A stretch of DNA of 64,000 bases from an uncultured Acidobacteriota bacterium (GTDB taxonomy: Bacteria > Acidobacteriota > Thermoanaerobaculia > Multivoradales > UBA5704), in NCBI GenBank assembly GCA_963761645.1, contig CAVXIG010000039.1, positions 2,495-66,494 on the forward strand. Direction: 5' to 3'. The stretch's first letter is position 1, and each line of letters opens with the position of its first letter. Below are positions 5,318 through 42,707 of this stretch, piece after piece. The translations under genes were made by a program, and so were the position numbers. The notes beneath the pieces were generated by a model. That model was not told the origin of the DNA, searched no databases, and was given only the letters and a program-made list of their open reading frames with translations.

Positions 5318-5408
5318 AAGAGCTTGGACAGGCTCCTCGGAACCCTCGGAGGGCCGGTTGTCGCCGAGACGACGAGCCTGCGTGCCAGGACGCGCCTTCC
5401 TGAAGAAA

Positions 5409-6720: not shown

Positions 6721-6723
6721 AGA

Positions 6724-8325: not shown

Positions 8326-8520
8326 GATCGGTTTTTGGGCTCTCCGGCACCTGTTCCATTGAAGTGAGGCGCCCGTTGTGGCGTGGAGTCGCCGGGTACG
8401 TTGCAAGATCTTGCGCACTCTGTCAATCGGCGCTTCGAGAATTTGGGGCTGTGCTACCCTCCCTTTCAAGCAACTGGCAGCGCCGGCCGGCATGGACGGT
8501 CCGGCGACAGGAGACAATCG

Positions 8521-9078: not shown

Positions 9079-9116
9079 GAACGGCGCTCTTCAGGGCTCC
9101 TCGAATCCTCACCCCT

Positions 9117-9158
9117 GGCCCCCTCTCCACGCCGTGGCGAGGGGGATTTCGATTTTTC
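9117..9158 (+). terminator. rho-independent terminator candidate after the thioredoxin-like gene
   Basis: Stem CCCCCTC (9119-9125) pairs with GAGGGGG (9139-9145), followed by ATTTCGATTTTTCT. Confidence 0.6.
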
Positions 9159-9224
9159 TGGCACTCCTCTTGCTTCGGCAACGCCCGAGGGCAATGGCGC
9201 CTGGATGGAAAAAAGGAGTGCATC

Positions 9225-9722
9225 ATGGAGATCGATTCCCTCAGGAAGCTCTACGTGGACGAGCTCAAGGACCTTTACAGCGCTGAGAAGCAGATCCTTC
9301 AGGCCCTTCCGAAGATGATCAAGAAGGCCCAGAACGAGCAGCTCAAGAAGGCCTTCGAGGATCACCGCCAGGTGACCGAGATGCAGGTCGAGCGTCTGGA
9401 CCGCATCTTCGAGATGCTCGGCAAAGCCGCCCGCGGCAAGAAGTGCAAGGCCATGGAGGGGCTGATCGAGGAAGGCAAGGAGATGATGCAGGAGGACATG
9501 GATCCCGAGGTGATGGACGCCGCCCTGATCGGCGCCGCCCAGCGCATCGAGCACTATGAGATGGCGGGCTACGGCACGGTGCGGACCTGGGCCCAGGTCC
9601 TCGGCGAGAAGGAGCAGGCCAAGATCCTGCAGCAGACCCTCGACGAGGAGGGGGACGCGGACAAGCTGCTCACCCGGCTCGCCGAGAGCACGATCAACGT
9701 CGCGGCCGCCGTCGGGGCTTGA
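9225..9722 (+). CDS. DUF892 / YciE-YciF ferritin-like stress protein
   Basis: Intact 165-aa ORF. Family-typical LRKLYVDELKDLYSAEKQILQALPKM...AFEDHRQVTEMQVERLDRIFE...IEHYEMAGYGT. Confidence 0.8.
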   Translation: MEIDSLRKLYVDELKDLYSAEKQILQALPKMIKKAQNEQLKKAFEDHRQVTEMQVERLDRIFEMLGKAARGKKCKAMEGLIEEGKEMMQEDMDPEVMDAALIGAAQRIEHYEMAGYGTVRTWAQVLGEKEQAKILQQTLDEEGDADKLLTRLAESTINVAAAVGA

Positions 9723-9813
9723 CGCTTCTGTAGGGGCCTAAAATCTGTCAGGGGCGCCCCGGCGTGGGCGCCCTGCTGTCTTCCCAGGGTTGTGATAGCT
9801 TCACCGCCCGGCA

Positions 9814-11718: not shown

Positions 11719-11819
11719 ACCCTCCTCTCGCCGGGGGGGACTCCCCGAAGCCGGCTCACCAGGGCCATCACAAGCAGGGCAAGGGTTACCTCTTCGCCCT
11801 CTCGCTCGGCGCCCTGGGG

Positions 11820-13652
11820 GTGGTCTACGGCGACATCGGCACCAGCCCCCTCTACGCGCTGCGCGAGTGCTTCCACGGCGAGCACGGCATCGCTCCCAGC
11901 CACGACAACGTGCTGGGCGTGCTGTCGCTGGTGTTCTGGGCGCTGATCATCATCATCTCGATCAAGTACCTGGTCTTCGTCATGCGCGCCGACAACCGGG
12001 GCGAGGGGGGGATCCTGGCGCTGACCTCGCTGGTGCCCCACGATCTGCGCGAGCACGGGCTCGAGCGGCGGTGGCTGCTGACGGCGCTGAGCCTGTTCGG
12101 CGCCGCCCTGCTCTACGGCGACGGCATGATCACCCCGGCGATCTCGGTGCTCTCGGCGGTCGAGGGCCTGGAGACGGCGACGCCGTTCTTCAACCCCTAC
12201 GTGGTGCCGATCACGCTGGTCATCCTGTTCGCCCTGTTCCTCATCCAGCAGCGCGGCACGGCGGGGATCGGCAAGCTCTTCGGGCCGGTGATGATCCTCT
12301 GGTTCGTCACCATCGGCGTCCTCGGCGTCTTCTGGATTCTCCGCGTCCCCTCCGTCCTCGCGGCGGTCAACCCCTGGCACGCGGTGCGGTTCTTCCTGGT
12401 CAACCGGGGGCACGGCTTCCTGGTGCTCGGCTCGGTCTTCCTGGTGGTCACCGGCGGCGAGTCGCTGTACGCGGACATGGGCCATTTCGGCCGCCGCCCG
12501 ATCCGGATCGCCTGGTTCGCCCTGGTGCTCCCCTCCCTGCTGCTCTGCTACTTCGGCCAGGGCGCCCTGCTGGTGACCCATCAGGACGCCGCCGCGCAGC
12601 CGTTCTACGAGATGGTGCGGCGGCTCGCCCCGGTGCTGCTCTACCCGATGGTCGTGCTCAGCACCGCGGCGGCGATCATCGCCTCGCAGGCGGTGATCTC
12701 GGGGGCCTTCTCGCTGACCCGCCAGGCGGTGCAGCTCGGCTTCATCCCGCGCATCGCGATCGTCCACACCTCGAACGAGGAGATCGGCCAGATCTACATC
12801 CCGTCGATCAACTGGCTGCTCATGCTCGCCACCTTCGGGCTGGTGCTCGGGTTCCAGAAGTCGACCAACCTCGCGGCGGCCTATGGCGTGGCGGTGACCA
12901 ACGCGATGGTCATCACCACCCTGATCGGCTACGTGGTCGCCCGCCACCGCTGGAAGTGGAGCCGGCTCGCGGTGGCGCCGGTGGCGATCACCTTCCTGCT
13001 CATCGACAGCTCGTTCTTCGCCTCGAACATCATCAAGGTCCCCGACGGCGGCTGGTTCCCGCTGCTGGTGGGGGTCTTCGTCTACACCCTGATGTCGACC
13101 TGGAAGCGCGGCCGGCAGATCCTGGCGCAGCGGCTGGCCCAGGAGTCCCTGCCGCTCGACAAGTTCGTGGAGAACGTCCGGCCGGACTCGCCGATCCGCG
13201 TGCCGGGCACGGCGATCTTCCTCTCCCGCGATCCCGCCGGCGTGCCTACCGCCCTGCTGCACAACCTCAAGCACAACAAGGTTCTGCACTCGCGGGTGAT
13301 GGTGCTGACGATGGTCACCGAGGAGGTGCCGGCGGTGCCGGCCGAGGAACGGCTCGAGATCCAGCCGCTCGGCAAGGAGTTCTACCGCGTGATCACCCAC
13401 TACGGGTTCATGCAGAACCCGGGGGTGCCGGAGGTGCTGGAGCTGCTGAAGGAGAAGGGGATCGCGCTCGACGAGATGTCGACCACCTTCTTCCTCAGCC
13501 GCGAGACCCTGATCGCCAGCAAGGTGCCGGGCATGGCGATCTGGCGCGAGAAGCTGTTCGCCCTGATGGTCCGCAACGCCCAGCGCCCGACCGACTTCTT
13601 CCGCATCCCCGTCAACCGGGTGGTCGAGCTGGGGATGCAGGTGCGGTTGTAA
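11820..13652 (+). CDS. kup: KUP/HAK/KT potassium uptake transporter, copy 2 (tandem paralog)
   Basis: Intact 610-aa ORF colinear with copy 1. In-frame homology (AHQGHHKQGKGYLFALSLGALG) continues upstream of the GTG at 11820 to about 11751 without an obvious start codon. Confidence 0.85.
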
Positions 13653-17222: not shown

Positions 17223-18345
17223 TCAGCAGCCGAGCGCCTGGGCGAGATCCTCGATCAGGTCATCCGGGTGCTCGAGGCCGATCGAGACGCGGATCAGCTC
17301 CGGCGGCGTGCGCGAGCCGGGCCCCTCGCTGGTGGCGCGGTGCTCGATCAGGCTCTCGACGCCGCCGAGCGAGGTGGCGCGGGTGAACAGGCGGGCGCGG
17401 CCCACCGCCGCGAGGGCCGCCTCCCGCCCCCCCGCCACCCGGAAGGAGAGCATGGCGCCGAAGCCCGACATCTGGCGCCGGGCGATCTCGTGCCCGGGAT
17501 GGGAAGGGAGCCCGGGATAGTGCACGGCGGAGACGGCCGGGAGGGCCTCCAGGGCGCGGGCGACGGCGAGCGCTCCCGCGCTCTGGGCCGCCATCCGGCA
17601 GGCGAGGGTGCGCACGCCGCGCAGCACCAGCCAGTCGTTGAACGGCGAGGCGACCGCCCCCAGGATGTGGCGCAGGTGGCCGACCCGCTCCCAGAGCGGA
17701 TCGCGGCGGGCGAAGACGAGGGCGCCCCCCTGGACGTCGCTGTGGCCGCCGAGGTACTTGGTGGTCGAGTGGAGGACGACGTCGGCCCCGTGCTCGATCG
17801 GCCGCTGGAGCACGGGGGTGGCGAAGGTGTTGTCCACCGCCACCAGGGCGCCCGGCCTGGCGGGCGAGGGCGGCGGCGCCCGCCAGATCGACCACGTTGA
17901 GCAGGGGGTTGGACGGCGTCTCCAGCCAGACCAGCCGGGTCTCCGGACGGATCGCCGCCGCGAGGGCCGCGAGGTCCCCCATGGCCACGAAGTCCGACCG
18001 GATCCCCCAGTTGGGGAGGACCTCCCCGGCGGCGGCGCGGAAGCCGTAGTAGACGTCGTCCGGAAACAGGACGTGGGAGCCCGGCGGCAGGGCCTGGAGC
18101 AGGGCGATCCCGGCCGCCATCCCGGAGGCGAAGACGAGCGCCGCCTCCCCCCCCTCGAGAGGGAAGAGGGCCTCCTCGAGCTGCTCCTGGGCGGGGTTCG
18201 ACTCGCGAATGTAGGTGTGGCCGCCGATCGGGACGCTCTCCGGATCGCGGGCGAAGGTGGTGGAGAGATAGATCGGCGGAGCCACCGAACCGGTCGCGGG
18301 ATCGATCCGGTGGCCAGCGTGGACCGCGCGGGTCTCGAAGCGCAT
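17223..18345 (-). CDS. PLP-dependent Cys/Met metabolism enzyme (cystathionine gamma-synthase / gamma-lyase / beta-lyase family); frame broken once
   Basis: MRFETRAVHAG..., PLP-Lys region VLHSTTKYLGGHSD, C-terminal IRVSIGLEHPDDLIEDL. ORF 17260..18588 (N-part from ATG 18345) and ORF 17223..17843 join near 17855. Confidence 0.85.
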
Positions 18346-20036
18346 CAACGGCTCTTCTGCGCGCAGCTCCGGAGGGCGTCTCCCTGGCCGCCCGAAAGGG
18401 CACCCGCCTTGCCCAGGCTCTCGGCGAGGCGGCCGACACAGCCCACGAACGCGTCGTGGCCGTTCGCGTCGACCTTGCAGTCGGCGATCCGGTCGGAGAT
18501 CCGGCAGCCGTCGGAGAACACCGTGTTGTCGACGCCCGAGTCGCAGCCGTCGATGATCACGGTCGGGTTGCTCGACGAGCCGATGCACAGATCGACGCCG
18601 TCCGCCACGCCGTCCTTGTCGGAGAACCAGCCGATGTCGGTCAACTGCTGGCGGGTCAGATCGGGGTCGTGCGTGAGGTCGCCGTTGATCGACGGCTCCA
18701 TCAGCAGGTTGGGGAAGGCGACCGGGTCCCAGTGCGAGTACGACGAGCCGAGGGCGACCGGGTTGGGGGCGTAGAGGAGCACCCGTCCCTGGGCGTCGGC
18801 GCCGGCGCGGATGCGCGGGTTGACGCCGATCGTCGCCGTCGCCTTGCCGCGGGTCGCCTTGGCCCGCAGCTTGTTGCCGTCGGCCAGGCTGATCCGGACC
18901 GCGGGGATGGTGATGCTCGGATCGGTGCCGGAGATCCCGGGGGGCGGACTGCCGGCCACGTTGTCCGCGATGATCACGCCGATCGCGCCGGCGTCCTGGG
19001 CGTTCTTCACCTTGTCCACGAAGTTACAGACGCCGCGGTCGATCAGCGCGATCTTGCCGCGGAGGCTGGAGGAGATCGCCGAGCAGCCATCCGTCGCGGT
19101 CGATTCGCCGCCGGGGCCGTCCTCGTCCGCGTCCTTGGCCAGGAGGACGTTGCCCTTGACCCCCGGCGAGGTGAGAGGCGCGCCGAAGGTGGCGGTGCCG
19201 ACGGCGAAGCTGCCCAGGGAGGCCGGCACGTTGACCGTCACCAGCGGCGTGCCCGACTGCAGCACGTGCGGCGCGGCGGCGCTGACGTTCTTGCCGATCC
19301 AGACCACGTGGTTGGTGTCGACGGTGGCGGCCCGCCGCTGCGCGTCGCTCAGCTTGGGCCAGGCCTTCTTGAAGGTGGTGCTGTAGGTATAGGTGCCGTA
19401 GATGTCCGGAAAACCCTGGAGCTGGGCGCCGGTCGTCTTGTCATAGTAACCGGCGAAGCCCAGGCCGTGGGCGAACTCGTGGAGCAGCACCGTCACCAGG
19501 TCGATGTTGCTGCCGTGGTTGCCGTCCAGGCCGTAATACCAGCCGAGGCTCGGCAGGCAGCTCGCCTTCCCCAGGTCGCTGTTGAACACGGCGACGATGT
19601 CGTCCGCGTTGGTGTTGGTGGCGCCGGGGGACAGGTCGTCGCCCGCCATCTTGTTGGCGAGCGCCACCGGATACCAGGTGTTGCGGAGCTCGGCGTGCGG
19701 AAAGTTGCCGAAGAGCTGGATCGTCGACGCCGCGCCCAGCGTGCCGCTGGTCGCCGTGCAGGACAGGGACTGGAAGGCCGACTGGATGTTGATCGTCACC
19801 GGACTGTCCAGGATGGCTCCCCAGAGGTCGGCGGCATACTGGAAGGCGATGAGCCGCTGCTGGCCGACCGTGGTGCCGGAATTGCCGCCGACCGGCGTCG
19901 CCGGCGCGGGATCGTTGAAGCCGACGCCCGCCGCGTTGGTGTTGACGATGACGATCTCGGCGCCGGCGAAGGACGGGCCCGCGAGCAGCAGCGCGGCGAG
20001 AGCGAAGAGCTGGACGCTCCGGTACGATCTGGTCAT
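18345..20036 (-). CDS. secreted zinc metalloprotease (HExxH) with inserted PA domain and Cys-rich C-terminal domain, copy 1
   Basis: Signal peptide LFALAALLLAGPSFAGA, zinc motif LLHEFAHGLGF, PA domain GKIALIDRGVCNFVDKVKNAQDAGAIGVIIADN, C-terminal 8-Cys domain. Intact. ATG 20036 has GGAGGG upstream (ORF track start is 20042). Confidence 0.8.
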   Translation of the reverse strand: MTRSYRSVQLFALAALLLAGPSFAGAEIVIVNTNAAGVGFNDPAPATPVGGNSGTTVGQQRLIAFQYAADLWGAILDSPVTINIQSAFQSLSCTATSGTLGAASTIQLFGNFPHAELRNTWYPVALANKMAGDDLSPGATNTNADDIVAVFNSDLGKASCLPSLGWYYGLDGNHGSNIDLVTVLLHEFAHGLGFAGYYDKTTGAQLQGFPDIYGTYTYSTTFKKAWPKLSDAQRRAATVDTNHVVWIGKNVSAAAPHVLQSGTPLVTVNVPASLGSFAVGTATFGAPLTSPGVKGNVLLAKDADEDGPGGESTATDGCSAISSSLRGKIALIDRGVCNFVDKVKNAQDAGAIGVIIADNVAGSPPPGISGTDPSITIPAVRISLADGNKLRAKATRGKATATIGVNPRIRAGADAQGRVLLYAPNPVALGSSYSHWDPVAFPNLLMEPSINGDLTHDPDLTRQQLTDIGWFSDKDGVADGVDLCIGSSSNPTVIIDGCDSGVDNTVFSDGCRISDRIADCKVDANGHDAFVGCVGRLAESLGKAGALSGGQGDALRSCAQKSR

Positions 20037-20073
20037 GAACATCCCTCCGTGTTACGGGGTACCTTGAAAAACC

Positions 20074-20079
20074 ATTATA
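20074..20079 (-). promoter_or_regulatory. perfect TATAAT -10 box candidate for protease copy 1
   Basis: Minus strand reads ...CAGCGGTTATAATGGTTTTTCAAGG about 35 nt upstream of the start codon. No good -35 seen. Confidence 0.35.
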
Positions 20080-20093
20080 ACCGCTGGGGAATG

Positions 20094-20126
20094 AAAAAAG
20101 GGCCGGCGCTCGCGCACCGGCCCTTG
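20094..20126 (-). terminator. rho-independent terminator after protease copy 2
   Basis: Minus strand reads AAGGGCCGG-tgcgcgagcg-CCGGCCCTT followed by TTTTCATT. Confidence 0.75.
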
Positions 20127-20153
20127 GTAGCTACGTTGCTTGCGAGCGGTTGA

Positions 20154-21837
20154 TCAATGGCTCGCGCGCGCGGCGCAGCTCTGGATGGCGCCCTTCTGGT
20201 TGCCCGAGATGACGCCCTGCTTCTTGAGCGTGTTGGTGAGGTTCGCGACGCAGCTCACGAACGCGCCATGATTGCCCGCGCCGACCGCGCAGTCGTTGAT
20301 CTGGTCGGTGATGCGGCAGCCGGTGGCGAACGTGGTGTTGGTCACGCCCGAGTTGCAGCCGTCGATGACCACGGTCGCGCTGCGGGAGGAGCCGATGCAC
20401 TGGTCGACGCCGTCGGCGACGCCGTCGCCGTCGGAGAACCAGCCGATGTCGATCATCTCCTGCTTGGTCAGGTCGACGCCGTGGGTCAGGTCGCTGTTGA
20501 TCGAGGGCTCCATCAGCAGGTTGGGGAAGGCGATCGGATCCCAGTGCGAGATCGAGGAGCCGGTGACCACCGGGTTCGGGGCGTTGAGGAGCGCCCGGCC
20601 GGCCGGGTTGGCGCCGGCGCGGACGGCGAGGTTGACGCCGAGCGTCACGTTGACCGTGCCGCTGGCGAGCGCCGTCTTGAGGGCATTGCCGTTGGCCAGG
20701 CTGATCCGGACCGACGGGATGGTGATGGTCGCATCGACGCCGGACATGCCGGCCGGCGGGCTGCCGGCCACGTTGTCGGCGATCAGCACGGCGATGGCGC
20801 CGGCGTTCTGCAGGTTCTTCACCTTGATCGCGAAGCCGCAGGTGCCGCGGTCGACGAGGCCGATTTTGCCGGTGAGGTTGGTGGTGATCGGTCGAGCAGC
20901 CGTCCGTGGTCGACGGGCCGGCGGCGTCCGCCGGATCGAGAGCCAGGAGGACGTCGCCGGTCACGCCCGGCGCGGCGAGGAGCGGGCCGAAGGTCGCGGT
21001 GCCGACCCGGTAGCTGCCCAGGGCGGCGGGCGCGTTCACCGTCACCAGCGGCGTGCCGAGCTGCAGCACGTTGGGAACCGCGGCGGTGACGTTGATGCCG
21101 GTCCAGACCACGTTGTTGGTGTCGATGGTGGCGGTGGCGCGCTGGATGTCCGTCATCTGCGGCCAGGCCTTGTTGAAGGTGGTGCTGAAGGTGTAGGTGC
21201 CGTAGACGTCCGGGAAGCCGGCGAGCTGCGCGCCCGTCACCTTGTTATAGAAGCCGGAGAAGCCCAGGCCGTGGCCGAACTCGTGGAGCAGCACGGTCAC
21301 CAGGTCGATGTTGGTGCCGTGGTTGGCGTCCAGGCCGAGGTACCAGCCGGTCCCGGCCAGGCAGTTGGGCTTGCCGAGATCGCTGTTGAAGCGGGCGATG
21401 ATGTCGTCCGCGCTGGTGCCGTTGGCGCCCGGAGCGAGGTCGGCGCCGGCCAGCTTGTTGGCCAGGGCGACGTGATACCAGGTGTTCAGGAGCTCGGTGT
21501 TCGGGAAGTTGCCGAAGACCTGGATCGCGCCGGCCGAGCCCAGGGTGGCCGCGGTCGCGGTGCAGGCGAGCGGGGTGAAGGACGACTGGATGTAGATCGG
21601 AACCGGGCTGTTCAGGATCGAGCCCCAGATGTCGGCGGCGTACTGGAAGGCGTTCAGCCGCTGCTGGCCGATGGTGGTGCCGGTGTTGCCGCCGACGGGA
21701 ACGGCGGGAGTGGGATCGTTGAAGCCCACGCCGGGAGCGTTGGTGTTGACGATGACGATCTGGGCGGCGCCGAAGACGGGGCCGGTGAGCAGAAGGGCGG
21801 CGATGGCGAAGAGGCCGAGGAGTTTGGTGGTCTTCAT
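20154..21837 (-). CDS. secreted zinc metalloprotease (HExxH) with PA domain, copy 2 (tandem paralog); frame broken once
   Basis: Signal peptide, LLHEFGHGLGF, PA domain GKIGLVDRGTCGFAIKVKNLQNAGAIAVLIADN. N-part in ORF 20131..21837, C-part in ORF 20154..20822, joined near 20885. Confidence 0.8.
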
Positions 21838-22267: not shown

Positions 22268-22818
22268 AACCATCCTCCCGTTAGGGGTTGCATCGAGGCA
22301 CGCTCCGGAGAGGGAACCAGCACCATGCCGGCCAGCGCTCGCGGAACGGAAGATCCAGTCTAAGAAGTAACGAGCCAATGTCTCAGTGCACGGATCCCGG
22401 GGAGCTCGGGACACAGGGGTTCAGATTCGTCGCTTCCAAAGATATCCAGAGACACTCCTGTCGCCGTCCTACGTCCTTCTTCTTTCGGCAACCCGGCTGT
22501 CTCTGTGAGACCCGCGGCTTTGCGTCACCGCCTCGCGGCGGCTTTGCCTTTTCGATGTGTGAGATCTGCGAGTTTGGAGTCGAAGCTGTCTAATGTCAAG
22601 GCTGTTTTTGTAATTCGCTCTCCACAATGGCACAACATGCTCCGGGGGACGGCTATTCCCGGAGTCTGAAAAACCAGCAAGAGAATAAGTTCTGAATATC
22701 GAGCGTCTCTATGAATTTGTTAATAAGCTTCAAGGCAATGGAAGCTGCTCATCAGCGTTTTATTCCCAAACCGGGCCGCCGGCTCGGAAATCTGGCCGGG
22801 TAAAAAATTCAATGCCGT

Positions 22819-32627: not shown

Positions 32628-32979
32628 CCTGATCCTCTCCTACAGGTTGTTGCCCGTAATTGGAGCACGTCCACGGAAGAAGTCTATGCAGTTGTTTGCA
32701 TGAGCGCACGACCCAGCCCCAAGACCTCCAAAAGGTACTCAGGATGGCTCGCGGCTTGCATTTACGGAACTTCCAGATGATGGCCGAGCTGAGAGCGATC
32801 TTCCGCGGTGGCGTGAGGAAGGGAGGAGCGGACAGGCTGCCCGCCTCCTGGGAAGCGCTCGACGAAGGATTTTCCGGCGGTCGAGCTCCGGTGGCCGCCG
32901 GGCGCCGCCAGGCTGGAGATTGCCCAGCCTCCTCCTGCCGGTCGCGGAGTGGGAATCCAATTTTTTCAACTTCTACGAG

Positions 32980-33718
32980 ATGGACGGGCGGCTGGACAGC
33001 CTGTCTGAGCGTGGCGGGCCGTTCGCCGTCGAGATCCTGGGCGGCGGCGAGGAGCTGCCGCGGACGGCGCGCAAGGTCCTCACCCGCTGCCAGCGGTGGA
33101 TGGACCGCCGCAACGGCGCCTCGCGCGGCGAGCTCTTCGACCGCGTGCTGAGCCGGCACCGGCAGGAGCACGATCTTGCGAAGCCGCTGGTGCGGGCCGA
33201 TTACAACCATGCCCTGGACACCTGGCAGTGGGCGCTCCGGCTCGATCCGGGCGGCGGATCTCGCCGTTCAGCTCGCGGCGCTTCTCCACGACGTCGAGCG
33301 CCTGGTCACCGAGGCGGACCGGCGGATCGAGCACCACGCAGACGATTACCAGGCGTTCAAGGACGAGCACGCGGCGCGGGGGGCCGAGATGGCCGGGGCC
33401 CTGCTCGAAGAGGCCGGCGTCGACGCCGGGACGCGGCGGCGGACGGTCCGCCTGATCGCGGGGCACGAGCATGCCGCGGCGCCGGGCGATCCGGACGCCG
33501 GCGCGATCGCCCTGCTCAACGACGCGGACGCGCTCTCCTTCTTCTCGCTCAACAGCGTGGGATATCTCGACTACTTCGGGCCGGAGGCGACCCGGCGCAA
33601 GGTAGCCTACACCCTGCGGCGGCTCCGCCCGGAGGCTCGCCGGCACCTCGACGGCATGCGTCTGCGCCCCGTTGTATCAGAGGAACTGGAGGCCGTCCTG
33701 GAGGGGGTGGTGGCATGA
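32980..33718 (+). CDS. DUF4202-like helical (HD-like) protein; frame broken once
   Basis: ALDTWQWALRLDP-ADLAVQLAALLHDVERL...YQAFKDEHAARGAEMAGALLEEAGVD...ALLNDADALSFFSLN...YFG follows the DUF4202 pattern as I remember it. ORF 32920.. (ATG 32980) and ORF 33176..33718 join near 33250. The stop overlaps the next start (ATGA). Confidence 0.5.
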
Positions 33719-34786
33719 AGCTGGTGATCTTCGGGCTGACGATCAGCTCGTCGTGGGGGAACGGCCACGCCACGCTCTGGCGGGGGCTCTGCCGGGCGCT
33801 GGCGAAGAGCGGCCACCGGGTCGTCTTCTTCGAGCGGGACGTCCCGTACTACGCCATCCACCGCGACCTGCGCGAGCTCCCCGGCACCGACCTGCGCCTC
33901 TATTCGAGCTGGGAGGAGGTGCTCGCCGCGGCCCGCCGGGAGGTGGCGGACGCCGACGCGGCGATGGTGACCTCCTACTGCCCGGACGGCGTCGCGGCCT
34001 GCGAGCTCGTGCTCGCGGACGGACGGCCCGGTCTCCGTCTTCTACGATCTCGATACCCCGGTCACGCTCGAGCGGCTCAGCGCCGGCGAGAAGGTGCCCT
34101 ATCTGCCGGCCGAGGGGCTCGGCGGCTTCGACCTCGTGCTCTCCTACACCGGCGGCCGCGCCCTCGACGAGCTGCGCGAGCGCCTCGGCGCCCGGCGGGT
34201 GGCCCCGCTCTACGGCAGCGTCGATCCGGAGACGCACCGGCCGGCCGCTCCCGTCCCGGCCTTCCAGGCGGATTTCTCCTATCTCGGCACCTACGCCGCC
34301 GACCGCCAGGAGGCGCTCCAGCGGCTCTTCCTGGAGCCGGCCCGGCGGCTGCCGGAGAAGCGGTTCGTGATCGGCGGCGCCCAGTATCCGGTCGACTTCC
34401 CCTGGGGGACCAACGTCTGGTTCGTCCGCCACCTGCCGCCGGCGGACCACCCGGCCTTCTACGCCTCCTCGCCCCTCACCCTCAACGTGACGCGGGCGGC
34501 CATGGCTGGAATGGGCTACTGCCCCTCCGGCCGGCTGTTCGAGGCGGCGGCCTGCGGCACGGCCGCGCTCTCCGACCGCTGGGAGGGGCTCGACCGCTTC
34601 TTCGAGCCGGGCCGGGAGATCTTCACCGCCGGCGGCACGGAGGAGGTCTTCGAGATCCTCTCCCTCCCGCGCCAGGAGATCGACCGGGTCGCCCGCGCCG
34701 CCCGCGAGCGGACGCTCGCCGAGCACACGGCGGAGCGGCGGGCGGCGGAGATGGTGGAGATGCTGCGGGTGGGGGTGCCGGCATGA
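33715..34786 (+). CDS. CgeB-like glycosyltransferase (DUF3880 + Glyco_trans_1_2 architecture); frame broken once
   Basis: MKLVIFGLTISSSWGNGHATLWRGLCRALAKSGHRVVFFERDVPYY... and C-terminal RLFEAAACGTAALSDRWEGLDRFFEPGREIF...RERTLAEHTAERRAAEM. Join near 34020. ATGA overlaps with both neighbours. Confidence 0.7.
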
Positions 34787-35523
34787 GCATCTGGGGGATC
34801 GTTCCCGCCGCCGGCGTGGGGAGCCGCATCCAGCCGCTCGCCTTCTCCAAGGAGCTGCTGCCGGTGGGCAGCCGCCACGACGGCGAGACGGAGCGGCCCA
34901 AGGCGGTCTCGGAGTACCTCGTCGAGCGGATGATCCTCGCCGGCGCCACCCGGATCTGCTTCACGATCTCCGCCGGCAAGTCGGACATCGTCGAGTACTA
35001 CGGCGGCGGCATCGGCCCGGTCCATATCTGCTACGTCGTGCAGCCGGAGCCGCAGGGGCTCTGCGACGCCCTGTTCCGCGCCCTGCCGCTGATCGGCGCC
35101 GGCGACCAGGTGCTGATCGGCCTGCCGGACACCGTCTGGTTCCCGGAGGACGGCCTCTGCCGTCTCGACGCGGACGCGCTCTCCTTCCTCCTCTTCCCCG
35201 TCCGCAACCCCGAGCTGTTCGACGCCGTGGTGACCGACGACGACGGCCGGGTGCTCGAGATCCAGGTCAAGCGGACGGACGCGTCCAGCTCCTGGGTCTG
35301 GGGAGCGTTCCGCATGCCGGCCAAGGTGTTCCACGATCTCCACGCCCTCTGGCGCGAGCGCGACGGACGGGACGTCTACGTCGGCACCCTGATCAACGAG
35401 TGGCTGGCGCGCGGCGGCGTGGCCCGCGGGGTCCGCGCCGGCGAGGCCTATGTAGACGTCGGCACGCTCCACGGCTACCGCGAGGCGATTCAACTTCTGG
35501 AGCGGCGCGAGGTGCTGGCGTGA
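34783..35523 (+). CDS. sugar-phosphate nucleotidyltransferase (NTP_transferase family, RfbA/GalU-like short form)
   Basis: Intact 246-aa reading frame inside ORF 32920..35523. N-terminal GxGxR loop VPAAGVGSRIQPLAFSKELLPV, then QPEPQGLCDAL and GLPDTVW. Confidence 0.75.
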   Translation: MSIWGIVPAAGVGSRIQPLAFSKELLPVGSRHDGETERPKAVSEYLVERMILAGATRICFTISAGKSDIVEYYGGGIGPVHICYVVQPEPQGLCDALFRALPLIGAGDQVLIGLPDTVWFPEDGLCRLDADALSFLLFPVRNPELFDAVVTDDDGRVLEIQVKRTDASSSWVWGAFRMPAKVFHDLHALWRERDGRDVYVGTLINEWLARGGVARGVRAGEAYVDVGTLHGYREAIQLLERREVLA

Positions 35524-36404
35524 TCGAAGCGGTGAAGCTGTGGAACGAGCCGAACAACAAGTCGCACTGGGATTTCGAGATCGATCCCGAATGGAAGCTG
35601 TTCGCCCGCATGGCGACGCTGGCGGGCGACGCCGTCCGCGGCGAGAACGGCACGCTGACCCGCGTCCTCGGCGGCATCTCGCCGATCGACGCCAAGTTCG
35701 TCCTCAACATGAAGGAGCAGGGCGTGCTCGATCACGTCGACGCCATCGCCGTCCACGGCTTTCCGCTCGACTGGAACCACTGGCAGATCAACGAGTGGCC
35801 CGACCGGCTGGCCGAGGTCCAGGCGCTGACCGACCTGCCGGTCTGGGTGACCGAGGTGGGGGTCTCGAGCTTCGGCGCCGAGGAGGTGCAGGAGTTCGGC
35901 CTCCGCCGCACCGCCGAGCTGCTCCTCGGCCGCGCGCCGCGCATCCACTGGTACAGCCTCTACGACCTGCCGCGCGCCTGGCCGGCCACCACCCGCCACC
36001 GCGAGGCCGAGGGCTCGTCCTACTACCGGCACTTCTACATGGGTATCCTGCGCGAGGACGGCACCCCCAAGCTCTCCCTGAAGCACTTCTCCGATTTCAC
36101 GCCCGAGCTCGGCATCTGCCAGTGGTTCCACTTCGAGGACCACCGGCTCGACGACGCCATCCGCTGGCTGCGCCAGCTCGGGGTCAAGCGGCTGCGCACC
36201 GGCCTCTCCTGGGCGGACAGCTTCCGCCCCGGCGCCGACGCCTGGTTCGACCACCAGATGAAGGCCCTCGACGAGTTCGACGTCACCCTCACCTACTGCT
36301 TCACCCCGGAGCACCGCGGCATCCAGCCGCACCACACGAGCCCGCCGCAATGCCTGGAGGAGTACGCGGACTTCTGCGCCCGGATGACGAAGCGGTACGC
36401 GTAA
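35520..36404 (+). CDS. clan GH-A type TIM-barrel glycoside hydrolase-like protein, apparently circularly permuted
   Basis: GTG 35520 overlaps the upstream stop (GTGA). The protein starts at the acid/base motif KLWNEPNN. Nucleophile-like motif LPVWVTEVG. The C-terminal part GVKRLRTGLSWADSF...FDVTLTYCFTPEH...EEYADFCARMTKRYA resembles the usual N-terminal strands. Intact. Confidence 0.6.
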   Translation: MIEAVKLWNEPNNKSHWDFEIDPEWKLFARMATLAGDAVRGENGTLTRVLGGISPIDAKFVLNMKEQGVLDHVDAIAVHGFPLDWNHWQINEWPDRLAEVQALTDLPVWVTEVGVSSFGAEEVQEFGLRRTAELLLGRAPRIHWYSLYDLPRAWPATTRHREAEGSSYYRHFYMGILREDGTPKLSLKHFSDFTPELGICQWFHFEDHRLDDAIRWLRQLGVKRLRTGLSWADSFRPGADAWFDHQMKALDEFDVTLTYCFTPEHRGIQPHHTSPPQCLEEYADFCARMTKRYA

Positions 36405-36419
36405 GCCCGCGCCGTTTTC

Positions 36420-37160
36420 CCTTCCGCGGCGAAGGACCGCCTCAGCTCCGCGAGGCCCGGCTCCTGCAGCCACTCGATCAGAGCTGTCAGGATCCGCTGA
36501 ATGTCCTCCGGACCCCGGCTCTTCTCCAGCCGGAACAACGCCGCGGCCAGATTCCGCAGCGACTCCAACTCGGAGTCGGCGATCTGTGCTTCGTCCAGCA
36601 GGCAATACCGCAACCGCGGGCGGTACTGCTCCAGGCCACCCGGAACCTCCTCGATCAGCTCGGCGAGCTCCCGAACGGCGCCCCAGGGCGCAGTCCCATT
36701 ATAGAGAACCAGCGGCAGAACCGGTGGAAGCTTGCCCGCGGTGGTCAATTGCCGGTGCTGAACGAGGTCCTGATAGAGCAAGCCCACGTAGACCTGCACC
36801 CGGAGAGCCATGAATGGATCCACGGTGGACTGGAATTCGATCAGCAGATAGACGTAAAGCCAGCGGTCCTGTCCCCAGCGGACCCGCCAGACGATGTCGC
36901 TCTCACGGCTGCGCAGCTCCGGAGTGACGTAGCTCCCGGAGATCCGGTCGCGCGCCGAGAAGTCCCGTCCGAACCCAGTCTCGCGGATGCGGCCGGCGCA
37001 CGCAGGTCTCATCCGCCATCTCGGGATGCGAAGAGCCGTCTGGTATCCGAATTATCGTGCTCCGCCACCGCGAGAGGCGACTCAGAACTCGCGGGGGGCG
37101 GTCCGAAGAAATCGCGAGCAGGCGATCAGGGAATCGGCGAGCAGCGCGAGCCACGAATCG
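36420..37160 (-). pseudogene. remnant of an Rpn/YhgA-like PD-(D/E)xK recombination-promoting nuclease / putative transposase (Transposase_31 family)
   Basis: ORF 36293..37012 has SGSYVTPELRSRESDIVWRVRW..WLYVYLLIEFQSTVDPFMALRVQVYVGLLYQDL...LPPVLPLVLYNGTAPW...YRPRLRYCLLD. N-terminal pieces HDNSDTRRLFA / SHPEM / DWV lie in three different frames (37010-37110). The C-terminus is missing and the frame runs into the antisense of the hydrolase gene. Confidence 0.65.
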
Positions 37161-37174
37161 CGCGGCCGGAGAGA

Positions 37175-38495
<1,321 letters not shown>

Positions 38496-38582
38496 GAGGA
38501 TCTCCCTTCGAAGCACACCAACAGCTTCTATAATTCCGTGCAACGCATGTGCCATGAAGATGTAAGAAAATCGTTCCCATGA

Positions 38583-38942
38583 GTGATCCCCGCCCTGACG
38601 ATCCGCCCCATCGTCTGCGTCGACCTGAACGGCGTGCTCGACCGCTACACCGGCTGGAAGCACGAGAAGCACTGGGACCCGCCCCGCCCCGGCTCGGAGG
38701 AGTTCCTGCGCCAGCTCAACGAGAGAGGGTTCCGGGTCGTCGTCTTCACCACCCGCTGGGCGGACGACGCCCGCGCCTGGCTTAGCGGACACGGCCTCGA
38801 CCGCTGGGTCTCCGAGGTGACGGACAGGAAGCCCGCCGCCCACGTCTTCGTCGACGACCGCGCGGTCTGCTTCCGTGGGGACTACGGCGAGACGCTGGAG
38901 GAGATCGCCCGTTTCCGGGCGCATTGGGAGGAAGGGGCGTAA
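38583..38942 (+). CDS. small HAD-fold protein (phosphatase-like; motif I reads D-x-N)
   Basis: Motif I VCVDLNGVLD, motif II VVVFTTR, Lys DRKPAA, motif IV VFVDDR. GTG start at 38583. An ATG at 38579 is in another frame. Confidence 0.55.
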   Translation: MIPALTIRPIVCVDLNGVLDRYTGWKHEKHWDPPRPGSEEFLRQLNERGFRVVVFTTRWADDARAWLSGHGLDRWVSEVTDRKPAAHVFVDDRAVCFRGDYGETLEEIARFRAHWEEGA

Positions 38943-38955
38943 AGGACGGCGAGGA

Positions 38956-40796
38956 CTAAAGCGCCTCCCCCACCCCCTGAGTGATCGCGCGGCGCAGCCG
39001 CTCGGCGTAGCGCTCCATCTCGGAGCGCATCCCGGCCGACTCGGCGGGGGCCGAAGACTCCAGGGCCTCGGCGGCGAGGGTGTGGCGGCCGGTCTGGAAG
39101 GCCAGGTAGGCCAGCCGGTAGAAATCGAGCTGGACCCGCTCGGCGCGCGGCGTGCCGCTCCGGCGGGCCACGGCGTCGGCCAGGAGATCCAGCTCGGCCG
39201 GATCGAGATCGAATTCGACGGCGGCGCCGGCGAGGTCCCAGGCGAGGTCCTGGGGACCGACGAGATCGTTCCCGCGGTGGTGATCGAGGGCGTCGGCCTT
39301 GAGGATCTTGCCGCCGCGCGTGACCAGCCACTCCCAGGCGTGCATCTTGTTATCGGTGAGGACGAGCCGCTCCAGGCGGGCCACCTCCGGCAGCCGGCCG
39401 CGCCAGTCCTTGACGATCCCCGCCAGCATCGGCCCGAGCGCCCGCTGGGTATTGAAGACCATCATCTCGAACAGCTTGACCGGCGTCGCCCCGCGCTCCT
39501 CCACCGCCGCCGGCAGATGGACGGCGCGGCAGGCGAGATAGCCCGCGACGGCGTCGAGCAGGCGGAGGCGGTCGACCTCGGGCGCGAGCGGCAGCGGGCG
39601 AACCTCCTCCAGCCAGGGGCCGACCAGGAAGCCGTGGCGCAGCCCGGCGATCGGCGGGATCAGCCCGGCCTCGCCGAGGACCCGGGCGACCGCCAGCTTC
39701 TCCCGGCCATAGCGGCCGAGCCCGGCGAACTTGAGCAGCCAGCGCCGCCCCCCCGCGGCGAGCAGGTACTTGCGCCGCTCCCCCTGGACGTCCGCCGCCG
39801 GCCACAGGGAGCGGTCGGGGAAGAGCTTCTCCCGCCAGCGGCCGGCGCTGAGATCCTCCAGCGCCCCCTCCGGCTCGCCGGTCAGGTCTTTCACCCAGCT
39901 CGCCAGCGGCCAGCGCGCCCGAGGGAGAGGCGAAGAGGTCCTCGAACTCGACCACCTGCCGGCGCGCCCGCTCCCAGCGCGCCCGGTGGCGCTCGCTGGA
40001 GTAGGGGCCCAGGCCGCCGCGGTGGCTGGGGAAGAAGGAGATCGACTCCGGCGCCACCCCGCGGTCCTCCAGCCAGTCGGCCACGCAGCCGAAGGAGCTG
40101 CCGGAGAGCCCCGGCCCCTCGTCCACCACGGCGTAGCGCGGCCGGGCGCCGCCGCCGCTCTCGCCGAGCAGCTCGCGCCCGAGCCACTGGCTGATCCCGA
40201 CCTTGCGCGAGAAGGGGTGCCCCTCGGGGCGCACGCTGGCGATGGTGGCCTGCTCGCCCGCCACCGCCGCCACCGCGGCGGCAAGCCCGGTGCCGATACT
40301 GCGGATGCCGATCACCCGCAGCGGCCCCGCTCTCACCCTCCCCGCGCAACGCGGTCTCGGCGGCGGCAAAAGTAGGTCTCGGGATAGAGGCCGTAGAAGG
40401 CGTACCCCTCGGGAACGGAGACCTCGATCGTCTCGGGGAGCGCGGCGGCGAGGAGCTCGTCGAGCGCGCGCTCGATCGGCGCCGTGGCGAAGCGCGCGTC
40501 CTCTCCCGCGGGGAGGGAGCCGAAGGTGCGGAACGAGGGGAGCAGCACCGCGGCGACTGCCCGGGTCAGCCGCGAGGCCGCCTCCCCCACCGGGCTCGGC
40601 CGCTCGTCGCCGTTCAGCGCGAGCTGCTGGTCGAGCAATCCCTGCTCCAGCTCCCCGGCCTCGACCAGCAGCTCGGCCAGGATGGCGTGGCGCTCGATCC
40701 GCGGCGGGTGGTCACCAGCCGTTCCAGGCCGGCACGCATCGCCGCAACCTTCTCCCGGGGGTCTTCGACCCGCTTGGCATCTCCGTAGACGAGCAT
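38956..40796 (-). CDS. uncharacterised ~613-aa protein: N-terminal helical region, PRTase-like domain, C-terminal protein-kinase/APH-like domain; frame broken about 4 times
   Basis: Pieces: MLVYGDAKRVEDPREKVAAMRAGLERL (from ATG 40796); IERHAILAELLVEAGELEQ...YAFYGLYPETYF; LRVIGIRSIGTGLAAAVAAV...RYAVVDEGPGLSGSSF (PRPP-loop-like); WVKDLTGEPE...RRWLLKFAGLG...LTDNKMHAWEWL...LKADALDHHRGNDLVGPQDLAWDLAGA. Shifts near 40715, 40368, 40325 and 39905. Confidence 0.5.
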
Positions 40797-40834
40797 GAGC
40801 GTCCAGTGTGAATGCAAACGGCGGACCGAAACGG

Positions 40835-41480
40835 CTACTTGCCGAGCGCCGCCTCGGCCGCCGGCAGGGCGAGCCGGGCCCATTCGGCGTACATCGCGCC
40901 CGAGGGGTGGAGGCCGTCCCCGGCGACCAGCGAGCGCTCGGCCGCCGCCTTGCGGGAGATCGGGGTGACGTCCACATAGCGGGCGCCCGCGCGCGCCGTC
41001 TCCTCGCGGTTGATCTGGTTGAAGCGGTCGATCTCGGCGGCGATCTTCCCCCGGTCGCGGCCGCTCTTTTCCGCGAAGGGGGTGACGCCCCAGTCGGGGA
41101 TCGAGAGCACGACCACGCGCTCCGCCCGCCCGCCGGCGAACCCGACCGCCCGCCGCAGCATCGCCACGAAATCGGCCCGGTAGGCCTCCGCGTCCCCTCC
41201 CCGATACTGGTCGTTGACGCCGATCAGCAGCGTCACCAGCTCGTAAGTAGCCCTGAGGGGCCGCGGCATCGATCCCCTGGGAGAGCTCGCGAACGGTCCA
41301 GCCGGTCCGCGCCACGATCTCCGGGTCGGCGACCGCCACTCCCCGCTCCCGCAGCAGCGCCGCCAGCCGGACCGGCCAGCGGTCGGCCGCATCCACGCTC
41401 TCCCCGATCGTGTAGGAATCGCCCAGGGCGAGGTAGCGCGGTGGCCTGGGCGCGTCCTGACAAGAGCATGATCCCGGCAA
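40835..41480 (-). CDS. SGNH/GDSL hydrolase family protein; frame broken once
   Basis: Block I YLALGDSYTIGE, block III LIGVNDQY, block V GDGLHPS. ORFs 40614..41480 and 40835..41506 join near 41265. A signal-peptide-like SWLTLIAGIMLLS exists in a third frame, so the start is uncertain. Confidence 0.7.
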
Positions 41481-41504
41481 TCAACGTGAGCCACGATACT
41501 TGAC

Positions 41505-42014
41505 ATGTCAACTATGTACCCCTACAATGATTCCTGGATGGAAGACCTGAGCCCATTGCAGCGGGAGATCCGGCAGGGAAAGCCCTTCCGCTCCCGCGGA
41601 CAGGAGGTGGTCGTGTCGCTGCTTCGCACGGCGGACCTCGTCCGGCGCGTGGTGGGCCGGACGCTGGAGCCGTATGACATCACGGCCCAACAATACAACG
41701 TGCTGCGCATCCTGCGCGGCGCGGGCGAGCAGGGGCTGCCGACGCTGGAGATCGCCGATCGGATGATCGAGCAGGCGCCCGGCGTCACCCGGCTCCTCGA
41801 CCGCCTCGAGGCCAAGGGGTTCGTGCGCCGGCAGCGCTGCGCCCAGGACCGGCGGCAGGTGCTCTGCTGGCTCACCCCCGCCGGTCTCGAGCTGGTGGAG
41901 CGGCTGGACGAGCCCGTCGACTCCGCGGATGCCGAGGCCGTCGCCATGCTGAGCCCCGAGGAACAGGACCGTCTGCTCCGGATGCTGGACGCGATCCGCG
42001 CCAGCCGCCGGTAA
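41505..42014 (+). CDS. MarR family transcriptional regulator
   Basis: Winged-helix core ITAQQYNVLRILRGAGEQGLPTLEIADRMIEQAPGVTRLLDRLEAKGFVRRQRCAQDRRQVL. Intact. Divergent from the SGNH gene. Confidence 0.85.
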   Translation: MSTMYPYNDSWMEDLSPLQREIRQGKPFRSRGQEVVVSLLRTADLVRRVVGRTLEPYDITAQQYNVLRILRGAGEQGLPTLEIADRMIEQAPGVTRLLDRLEAKGFVRRQRCAQDRRQVLCWLTPAGLELVERLDEPVDSADAEAVAMLSPEEQDRLLRMLDAIRASRR

Positions 42015-42098: not shown

Positions 42099-42707
42099 AT
42101 GACCAGAAAACTTTTCGCCGCCGCTGTTCTCACCACCCTCGCCGCCCTGCCGCTGCAGGCGGAGAGCTACAAGATCGATCCCAGCCATTCGGAGGTGGGT
42201 TTCACCATCCGCCACATGGTCTCCAACGTCCGCGGGCGCTTCAACGACTTCTCGGGCACGGTCGACATGGACCCCAAGGCTCCGCAGAAGGGCTCGGTCG
42301 AGTTCAGCGTCAAGACCACGAGCATCGACACCGGCAACGCCGACCGCGACAAGCACCTGCGCACGGCCGACTTCTTCGACGTCGAGAAGTACCCCGAGAT
42401 CACTTTCAAGAGCGATTCGGTCAAGCCCACCGGCAAGAACACGTACAACGTGACCGGCACCCTGACGATGCACGGCGTCAGCAAGAAGGTCACGCTGCCG
42501 GTGACCTTCAACGGCGAGGGCAAGGACCCCTGGGGCAACACCCGGGCCGGCTTCGAGACCGCGACCAAGCTCGACCGCAAGGCAGTACGGCATCGTCTGG
42601 AACAAGGCGATCGACAACGGCGGCGTGCTCCTGGGCGACGACGTGAACGTCTCCATCAACCTGGAGACCGTCAAGGCGGCCCCCGCCGCGGCGCGAAGGG
42701 CAAGTAA
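42099..42707 (+). CDS. YceI family periplasmic polyisoprenoid-binding protein; two compensating frame changes
   Basis: AGGAGG RBS and signal peptide. [30 protein letters not shown]...[27 protein letters not shown]. The segment [28 protein letters not shown] is in the frame of ORF 42625, between about 42580 and 42690. Confidence 0.8.

Follow-up and report, generated by a model that had tools for sequence, protein, structure and literature searches.

Gene content of the locus

The locus described here occupies positions ~32777 to 42014 of a 64-kb stretch of DNA from a soil acidobacterium of the Thermoanaerobaculia (the whole stretch is referred to as the window). It encodes a run of carbohydrate-active proteins facing a myo-inositol-1-phosphate synthase (MIPS), together with a small HAD-fold protein and a large kinase-like protein, p612. 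At a window G+C content of ~70%, raw lists of open reading frames are uninformative, and third-position GC indicated genuine coding on the strands given in an initial annotation, in frames that jump repeatedly. Queries against Pfam and NCBIfam were proteins from frames joined by hand; labels beginning with P and L denote related proteins and their contigs or loci, L167 being the contig of P0001. These searches upheld the identities first proposed, with Pfam matches to DUF4202/HD, Glyco_trans_1_2, NTP_transferase, MIPS, and SGNH and weak ones to HAD and, for the barrel protein described below, Glyco_hydro_cc.

Genes 1 to 4 lie on the forward strand and are translationally coupled through start/stop overlaps that are exactly as first described (ATGA at 33715-33718, ATGA at 34783-34786, and GTGA at 35520-35523). 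Gene 1 (32777..33718) encodes a DUF4202 protein (PF13875, 1e-20; HD, 9e-4) with an N-terminal extension and an HD-type metal-dependent phosphohydrolase fold, ~313 amino acids (aa) long once +1 insertions at 32861, 32921, and 33252 are repaired. It starts at ~32777 (MMAELRAIF...), and the ATG at 32980, from which the locus had been taken to begin, is internal; intact orthologues of 323-333 aa are present in L167 and L001. Gene 2 (33715..34786) encodes a CgeB-like GT-B glycosyltransferase (Glyco_trans_1_2, PF13524, 1e-39) of 356 aa after repair of a single +1 insertion at 34016. The repaired product aligns along 100% of its length with the intact metagenomic protein P0001, at 98% identity, and its relatives carry Thermoanaerobaculia (Acidobacteriota) names. 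Gene 3 (34783..35523) is intact and encodes a sugar-1-phosphate nucleotidyltransferase of 246 aa (PF00483, 2e-9) that is distantly RmlA-like; the closest solved structure is RmlA 1lvw (1e-10), and every score against the NCBIfam equivalogs was far under the cutoff. Gene 4 (35520..36404), also intact, encodes p294, a circularly permuted (beta/alpha)8 barrel of 294 aa resembling clan GH-A (Glyco_hydro_cc, 5e-4). Sequence searches of the PDB with the glycosyltransferase and with the barrel gave no significant match.

The four-gene arm is oriented toward MIPS, as had been reported, but the convergence is not direct, because an insert that the initial annotation missed lies between them. This insert (36414..37174, reverse strand) carries a truncated YhgA/Rpn-type gene (Transposase_31, PD-(D/E)XK; PF04754, 6e-23), the YhgA fragment at 36293-37051 on the reverse strand covering only positions 42-194 of the PF04754 model. 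Homology to L167 stops at 36413 and homology to L001 restarts at 37175, which places the insert exactly where close relatives have genes for PIG-L, GT4, and Acetyltransf_6 proteins. This strain has thus lost the PIG-L, GT4, and acyltransferase genes to a transposase insertion. The MIPS gene itself (37175..38495, reverse strand; PF07994, 1e-99; PF01658, 9e-32) encodes 439 aa once a frameshift at ~38210 is repaired and is recovered by tblastn, split over two frames, at 89-92% identity to the intact MIPS of L001. It scores 22 bits against TIGR03450 (mycothiol_INO1), for which the cutoff is 638. The reported lack of a CDP-alcohol phosphatidyltransferase was confirmed: the motif D..DG..AR...G...D...D does not occur in any of the six frames of the window, and no Pfam match to such an enzyme was found in the locus.

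The HAD-fold gene (38583..38942, forward strand) is intact and encodes a minimal, cap-less protein of 116-119 aa with weak Pfam and NCBIfam HAD matches. Four segments, vDLNGvLD, FTTR, DRKPAAHVFVDD, and AHWE, are invariant in 73 homologues. Motifs II (TT), III (K), and IV (DD) are present, and motif I is the invariant DLNGV, with Asn at +2 (DxN).

On the reverse strand, p612 (38956..40796; ~610 aa once three frameshifts are repaired) had no sequence match in Pfam, NCBIfam, or the PDB, the last searched both with the single sequence and with a 34-sequence profile. Its AlphaFold2 (AF2) model (pLDDT 87.7) comprises a helical N terminus, a phosphoribosyltransferase (PRTase)-like domain, and a choline-kinase/APH-fold small-molecule kinase, the combination of PRTase-like and kinase-like folds that had been guessed from the sequence. 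By Foldseek, the C-terminal half has the bilobal kinase fold, with matches to LicA (3.6e-8), APH(9), maltokinase, glucosamine kinase, and NahK, and the middle part matches uracil PRTase (UPRT 1i5e) weakly (4e-3). Homologues of 575-605 aa occur in several phyla at 31-58% identity and conserve a hydrophobic strand followed by DEGPGxSGSS, which resembles a PRPP loop. The kinase residues K342, D481, D501, and H505 are conserved across phyla, and the catalytic loop has Asn at +1 rather than at the canonical +5 of HxDxxxxN, with E488 conserved instead. Upstream of p612 in the same operon lies a gene for an SGNH/GDSL hydrolase (40835..41480, reverse strand; PF13472, 2e-24), which has one frameshift at ~41252 (two frames by tblastn), an uncertain start, and counterparts in the closest relatives only. 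Divergent from this operon is a MarR-family gene (41505..42014, forward strand; PF01047, 6e-13), whose position is conserved in L001, L004, and L109 and whose product is probably the local regulator.

No NCBIfam equivalog was matched by any locus protein, and literature searches on DUF4202, on CgeB with nucleotidyltransferase and inositol, on TIGR04290/Rta_06860, and on the pyruvyl transferase and F420-type genes of pSymB (described below) found nothing. The earlier statement that the non-MIPS genes match no characterized enzyme is thus borne out, and no product name for the cassette was found in the literature or in curated families.

A circularly permuted GH-A-like barrel

The most unusual member of the cassette is p294. 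Its score against Glyco_hydro_cc is 20.2 bits, just under the cutoff of 21, and a nonpermuted relative scores 22.2. When p294 is aligned with P0298, a nonpermuted protein of the ~320-aa class, residues 1-185 correspond to P0298 residues 111-293 (strands 4-8) and residues 197-294 correspond to residues 10-109 (strands 1-3), so that the canonical order of strands 1 to 8 is not followed. This two-block alignment to nonpermuted relatives identifies p294 as a clean circular permutant that starts at the WNEPNN strand. The gene is not a truncated one, as it encodes a complete permuted protein of 294 aa. We found no description of a circular permutation in clan GH-A.

The catalytic elements of the clan are retained despite this rearrangement. 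As in GH5, GH10, GH39, and GH53, the (beta/alpha)8 barrel has the acid/base Asn-Glu pair after strand 4 and the nucleophile Glu after strand 7, within the motifs WNEPNN and TE(V)G, as well as the conserved Arg (strand 2) and His (strand 6). W8, N9, P11, and E112 are invariant in 16 of 16 permuted and nonpermuted sequences, and E10 is kept in at least 90% of these and is invariant in a 10-sequence subset. Differences from the clan are the strand order, the cytoplasmic location (no signal peptide is visible), the identity of 70-83% across at least ten phyla, and the marginal Pfam matches. The AF2 model (pLDDT 81) has eight strand-helix units forming a TIM barrel. Foldseek returned generic TIM barrels (E ~1e-4), with GH10 and GH2 as the best local fits at 3.9-4.2 Å; such generic matches are expected for a permutant, and no GH family can be assigned to p294.

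An exhaustive HMMER scan recovered 1212 cluster representatives of the barrel family. Its members have either the permuted topology (294 aa) or the canonical one (~320 aa; relatives P0298, P0360, P0363, and P0378), and some canonical-topology relatives are fused to an NAD-dependent epimerase/dehydratase domain. Orthologues are labelled "beta-xylosidase" in RefSeq/GenBank.

Conservation of the cassette across phyla

At least 569 relatives of the barrel emerged when genomes were scanned at one per species. The components of the surrounding cassette were counted by tblastn in the best 80 loci, all of which have full-length permuted barrels with 70-83% identity. The hosts belong to the Acidobacteriota, Gemmatimonadota, Myxococcota (Sorangium, Myxococcus, and Archangium), Verrucomicrobiota, Alpha-, Beta-, and Gammaproteobacteria, Bacteroidota, Armatimonadota, Planctomycetota, and Desulfobacterota. 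A methyltransferase of the TIGR04290 family was the most frequent companion (63/80 loci), followed by the CgeB-like glycosyltransferase (57/80), NTP_transferase (46/80), a second GT4 (33/80), epimerases (29/80), a Zn-dehydrogenase and a p612-like protein (24/80 each), PIG-L (19/80), Gfo/Idh/MocA (18/80), GT4 (17/80), DUF4202 (12/80), acyltransferase (10/80), MIPS within 10 kb (9/80), and the HAD protein (2/80). The conserved unit is therefore not the quartet of DUF4202, CgeB, nucleotidyltransferase, and TIM barrel that had been proposed; the core consists of the CgeB-like glycosyltransferase, the nucleotidyltransferase, the TIGR04290 methyltransferase, and the barrel.

The common gene order is glycosyltransferase, nucleotidyltransferase, methyltransferase, and barrel, optionally followed by PIG-L, GT4, and acyltransferase genes. 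The contiguous glycosyltransferase, nucleotidyltransferase, and barrel genes of the window (33715-36404) have the same order in 46-57 of the 80 genomes, in many phyla. In most phyla the TIGR04290 methyltransferase gene directly precedes that of the barrel, and the methyltransferase of L005 scores 329.8 against this model (cutoff, 300). TIGR04290 is a hypothetical equivalog in NCBIfam (the "Rta_06860 family"), and the window cassette represents the same neighborhood but lacks the methyltransferase: tblastn did not detect it anywhere in the window, and in the Thermoanaerobaculia the arm is generally without one between nucleotidyltransferase and barrel.

The closest relatives show both fuller and leaner versions of the locus. 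L001 and L087/L088 have DUF4202, glycosyltransferase, nucleotidyltransferase, barrel, PIG-L, GT4, and Acetyltransf_6 genes converging on MIPS, with the HAD gene converging on the p612-SGNH pair and MarR beyond it. Within L005 and L006 the barrel gene abuts MIPS, and the PIG-L, GT4, and acyltransferase genes are absent between them. In L003 and L005, p612 is the final gene of a ten-gene operon whose contents include genes for a Zn-dehydrogenase, Gfo/Idh/MocA, two epimerase/dehydratases, CgeB-like glycosyltransferases, a TIGR04290 methyltransferase, and a GT4. Some relatives have three paralogous CgeB-like glycosyltransferases per operon. The top NCBIfam matches of the associated dehydrogenases are to the inositol enzymes IolG and IolM, at subthreshold scores. 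The accessory GT4 of the relatives has as its nearest matches glucosylsucrose synthase 7FG9 (1e-39) and BH4 glucosyltransferase, both of which glycosylate soluble small molecules (PMC9909042). It reaches 55.4 bits against the MshA model TIGR03449 (cutoff, 462.5), and the relatives' PIG-L is distantly like MshB (4e-4).

On the pSymB chromid of Sinorhizobium meliloti (at ~257 kb in strain 1021), a barrel with 72% identity, labelled "beta-xylosidase," lies among genes for glycosyltransferases, an epimerase, a Zn-dehydrogenase, Gfo/Idh/MocA, and a pyruvyl transferase. There (L086, 12876-15351), as in Hymenobacter (L076, 12021-14515), genes for an FrhB-like protein (F420 hydrogenase beta-subunit family) and a polysaccharide pyruvyl transferase come after the barrel gene, on the strand opposite to it. 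The Hymenobacter barrel is apart from the glycosyltransferases, and MIPS is 5 kb away. The proximity of barrel and MIPS in the Bacteroidota (5-6 kb, with unrelated genes between) is weak evidence of linkage. A His_Phos_1 gene is found directly upstream of MIPS in Hymenobacter (L076, 14841-15443) and between the HAD and p612-like genes in a metagenome contig (L137, 7328-8023); its product is another candidate phosphatase of the system.

These surroundings bear on the possibility that the cassette acts in cell surface polysaccharide or protein glycosylation, with the barrel as a processing glycosidase and MIPS nearby to serve envelope inositol lipids or by accident. The position of the barrel in S. 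meliloti and Hymenobacter, next to pyruvyl transferase and FrhB-like genes and with several glycosyltransferases in the vicinity, would fit such a role, as would the name CgeB, which derives from spore surface glycosylation. However, the window contains no exporter, polymerase, or polyprenyl-phosphate transferase, and neither the window nor the surveyed Thermoanaerobaculia loci contain Wzx/Wzy/Wza, an ABC exporter, an initiating phosphoglycosyl transferase, or cassette proteins with signal peptides or membrane segments. The barrel lacks a signal peptide, the accessory GT4 is similar to glycosyltransferases of small molecules, and the genes did not map to a known polysaccharide or spore coat pathway. 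With Bacillus CgeB of the spore crust the window glycosyltransferase has the PF13524 domain alone in common; the host is an acidobacterium, and there are no cge/sps-like neighbors. We consider a surface function distinctly improbable.

A gene set with 70-83% identity from the Acidobacteriota to the Myxococcota, Verrucomicrobiota, Proteobacteria (including the S. meliloti pSymB chromid), and Bacteroidota marks a gap in what is known of bacterial carbohydrate metabolism, and the circularly permuted GH-A barrel, the PRTase-kinase fusion, and the DxN HAD protein are novelties at the enzyme level. The occurrence of orthologues in the tractable hosts S. meliloti, Myxococcus, and Sorangium makes the question of function directly testable.

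Linkage to MIPS and a possible route

The physical linkage of the cassette to MIPS is recurrent but facultative. Nine of the 80 loci have MIPS within 10 kb, compared with ~0.3 expected by chance according to our own estimate, which assumes one MIPS gene per 5-Mb genome. Linkage takes four arrangements in two phyla: convergent in the Thermoanaerobaculia, divergent and upstream of DUF4202 in other Acidobacteriota, divergent and upstream of the methyltransferase in Archangium, and within the operon in a metagenome-assembled genome of the Myxococcota. In the last of these (L009) the operon runs PIG-L, GT4, acyltransferase, CgeB-like glycosyltransferase, nucleotidyltransferase (7784-8590), MIPS (8595-10004), and barrel (from 10001), the MIPS gene overlapping the start of the barrel gene. 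The adjacency is thus not coincidental, in keeping with the initial annotation.

We therefore read the locus, tentatively and at somewhat less than an even chance, as a reduced copy of a widespread, uncharacterized cytoplasmic glycosylation cassette that in this lineage uses inositol phosphate as the acceptor. Every enzymatic step of the corresponding route, including the one that involves inositol, is one that we infer. MIPS would convert glucose-6-phosphate to inositol-3-phosphate, the RmlA-like nucleotidyltransferase would supply an NDP-hexose, and the CgeB-like GT-B enzyme would transfer the sugar onto inositol (phosphate). Dephosphorylation could be carried out by the candidate small HAD protein, the HD-fold DUF4202 protein, or both. 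The permuted barrel, with its acid/base and nucleophile glutamates kept, may trim, transglycosylate, or recycle the glycoside. The kinase half of p612 might rephosphorylate a free sugar or cyclitol for reentry via the nucleotidyltransferase, following the logic of AmgK-MurU and LicA-LicC. The GT4, PIG-L deacetylase, and FemAB-like acyltransferase of fuller relatives suggest an aminosugar branch in which the sugar is deacetylated and then reacylated, and methyltransferase, oxidoreductase, and epimerase genes may add further steps there. A small-molecule product is supported by the likeness of the relatives' GT4 to small-molecule enzymes and by the subthreshold IolG/IolM matches of the dehydrogenases. 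If the product is indeed a soluble glycoside based on inositol or an aminosugar, it would represent a new metabolite of soil bacteria resembling a stress protectant or redox buffer.

Several observations weigh against this reading. Most of the genomes with the barrel cassette (71/80) have no MIPS within 10 kb, and the glycosyltransferase and nucleotidyltransferase are 54-79% identical whether MIPS is nearby or not, which argues for a shared acceptor, not necessarily inositol. Inositol phosphate would then be at most a lineage-specific acceptor, or would be supplied from elsewhere. The interpretation first proposed is partly supported. The HAD gene had been tied to MIPS, and the two genes diverge in 12 of 38 loci of an HAD-seeded metagenome scan (in 6 of the 38 the barrel gene immediately precedes the HAD gene on its own strand, and in 18 unrelated genes are upstream); however, its steadiest partner is the p612-like gene, on which it converges in 34 of 40 evaluable loci. 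The invariant DxN of the HAD protein differs from the DxD of HAD phosphatases. The barrel adjoins polysaccharide pyruvyl transferase genes in Bacteroidota and Sinorhizobium. A sister strain, L004 (GCA_039918595.1), whose flanks are 92-96% identical at the nucleotide level, lacks the whole cassette and keeps SGNH-p612-MarR. Finally, the frameshifts in the window, if real, would make this copy of the cassette dead.

Two further observations concern the HAD gene. In favor of the proposed route, L115, L123, and L130 have it incorporated into the operon, following the barrel gene. The HAD-p612 pair looks mobile, and a reading as a defense system was discarded as PADLOC found no matches.

The same counts raise the possibility that the product of the cassette is a glycoside or short oligosaccharide, cytoplasmic and often methylated, built on an acceptor other than inositol, with MIPS and HAD as lineage-specific additions that serve a side branch or an unrelated need. 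The cross-phylum core is in line with this (barrel, 80/80; methyltransferase, 63/80; glycosyltransferase, 57/80; nucleotidyltransferase, 46/80; MIPS, 9/80), the products of the cassette all appear to be soluble, and three paralogous CgeB-like glycosyltransferases per operon in some relatives suggest that more than one sugar is added. It is harder to reconcile with MIPS lying inside the L009 operon and adjacent to the cassette in four independent arrangements, with the lack of a methyltransferase from the four-gene arm in the lineage of the window, and with the absence of homology to the mycobacterial system that makes methylated polysaccharides, whose MmpH folds as an (alpha/alpha)6 barrel and whose ManT belongs to GT4 (PMC9883506). 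A noninositol acceptor is possible, if doubtful.

If inositol phosphate is involved, its role might also be that of a donor. The nucleotidyltransferase would then activate it to NDP-inositol in the manner of IPCT, and the GT-B enzyme would transfer inositol phosphate as TagF does. IPCT shares the nucleotidyltransferase fold, the nucleotidyltransferase and MIPS genes are adjacent and coupled in L009, and p612 resembles LicA, whose partner LicC also has this fold. However, a CDP-alcohol phosphatidyltransferase is absent from the window, the nucleotidyltransferase is nearest to RmlA-type enzymes acting on hexose-1-phosphates, and it is conserved in many genomes with no MIPS nearby. We regard activation of inositol phosphate as very improbable.

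A broader and more speculative proposal, which we think rather unlikely, is that the permuted-barrel cassette as a whole (CgeB-like glycosyltransferase, nucleotidyltransferase, TIGR04290 methyltransferase, and barrel, in some cases joined by PIG-L/GT4/FemAB-like acyltransferase and the PRTase-kinase/HAD pair) specifies a novel class of cytoplasmic metabolites found across the bacteria, the barrel catalyzing a new, nonhydrolytic key step. Such a step would explain the 70-83% identity of the barrel across phyla. A candidate member of the class is an aminosugar-cyclitol glycoside bearing acyl or methyl groups, whose role would resemble that of a stress solute, a primer, or a low-molecular-weight thiol.

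Comparison with known systems

By analogy, the cassette appears most like the early steps of mycothiol synthesis or the two-step solute pathways combined with an activation pair of the AmgK-MurU/LicA-LicC kind, and it lacks the defining features of each. As in mycothiol synthesis (Ino1, the GT4 MshA, the phosphatase MshA2, and the PIG-L protein MshB), MIPS would supply the phospho-acceptor, a glycosyltransferase and a candidate phosphatase are encoded alongside, and L001, L009, L087, and L167 add GT4, PIG-L deacetylase, and acyltransferase genes in the same operon. Unlike that system, the window has neither GT4 nor PIG-L (Pfam and tblastn), its glycosyltransferase belongs to PF13524 rather than being an MshA, and the GT4 of relatives is closer to glucosylsucrose synthase than to MshA. 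There is no MshC or MshD, no locus gene matching a ligase or GNAT in Pfam, and the window MIPS has the fold but is not of the Ino1 type represented by TIGR03450.

The GpgS/GpgP, MpgS/MpgP, and di-myo-inositol-phosphate (MIPS, IPCT, and DIPPS) pathways likewise combine an NDP-activated donor with a phosphorylated acceptor and then a phosphatase, and, as in this locus, MIPS and a nucleotidyltransferase are clustered. Here, however, the glycosyltransferase is of a different family, the CDP-alcohol phosphatidyltransferase (DIPPS) is missing, the candidate phosphatase has DxN, and the permuted barrel, DUF4202, and the PRTase-kinase fusion are additional. With AmgK-MurU, LicA-LicC, and NahK-GlmU the locus shares a choline-kinase/APH-fold kinase (LicA being the best Foldseek match) and an enzyme of the NTP_transferase fold; p612 differs in its extra conserved PRTase-like domain, in its noncanonical HxDxxxxN spacing, and in being encoded on the arm opposite the nucleotidyltransferase, with HAD as its constant neighbor.

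Mycobacterial synthesis of methylmannose polysaccharide (MMP; ManT, MeT1, MeT3, and MmpH) and methylglucose lipopolysaccharide (MGLP) offers a similar set of cytoplasmic glycosyltransferase, methyltransferase, hydrolase, and acyltransferase, and MGLP is primed on a small glycoside from a two-step phospho-acceptor route. The key parts are nonhomologous, and the likeness is one of analogy only. As a counterpart of MmpH, in particular, the barrel was ruled out by the (alpha/alpha)6 fold of that protein.

Strain variation and integrity of the reading frames

In the sister strain L004, a 186-bp segment (8011-8196) replaces 6.27 kb of the window (32692-38961, DUF4202 through HAD). Given the near-identical flanks, this absence shows the cassette to be a presence/absence polymorphism at the strain level. 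The genome of L002 and L003 has MIPS ~10.6 kb from the four-gene arm on the same 3.6-Mb contig, with ~10 kb of toxin-antitoxin genes (PemK, BrnA, HTH, DUF433, and Uma2) between the four-gene and MIPS arms, a stretch that suggests that the cassette is an insertion hotspot.

The window carries a trimmed copy, embedded in sequence that has numerous single-base insertions. Compared with its closest relative, L167 (95.6% nucleotide identity over 32730-36413), it contains the four +1-nt insertions in genes 1 and 2 and two in-frame 3-nt indels, and the +1 insertions are not in long homopolymers in the alignment. Searches by tblastn with intact L001 proteins located the frameshifts in MIPS, p612 (~39920, ~40340, and ~40702), and SGNH and others in the flanking DUF1501, DUF1800, and YceI genes. 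The coding frames of the locus are broken ~10 times by single-base insertions; only the nucleotidyltransferase, barrel, HAD, and MarR genes of the locus are intact. Single-base frameshifts occur throughout the window at ~1 per 1-2 kb, for example, at 9799/11616, 25250/25482, 29883, 32268, 42511-42581, and 45672/47164.

It could be argued that the cassette of this strain is a decaying pseudogene island, with real frameshifts and three genes lost to a transposase, on its way to the full deletion seen in the sister strain. The ~10 +1 frameshifts, the replacement of PIG-L, GT4, and acyltransferase by a YhgA fragment, and the entire absence of 32692-38961 from L004 would all be accounted for. However, backbone genes of the window (DUF1501, DUF1800, YceI, and others) are frameshifted at similar density, the repaired frames are free of stop codons, and most of the codons of the barrel gene that differ from L167 do so synonymously (17 synonymous, 6 nonsynonymous; 11 and 9 in the nucleotidyltransferase). 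The frameshifts thus look like assembly indel errors, which fit this pattern better than decay does, and we consider a pseudogene island unlikely by a good measure.

Other features of the window

A c-di-GMP-I-GGC riboswitch aptamer (22483-22557, reverse strand; 67.6 bits against a gathering score of 59) precedes, in the minus-strand direction, two genes for PA-domain proteins (18345-20960). Two full-length genes for Kup-type K+ transporters (K_trans, each ~1e-190) stand in tandem on the forward strand at 9799-13652; a gene for a POT-family transporter comes next, on the opposite strand. Positions 1-6800, with a G+C content of 51-62% against 70%, contain TPR-like open reading frames and may be foreign DNA; two paralogous open reading frames in this region (3850-4251 and 5689-6720) have C termini that look like sigma factor region 4.

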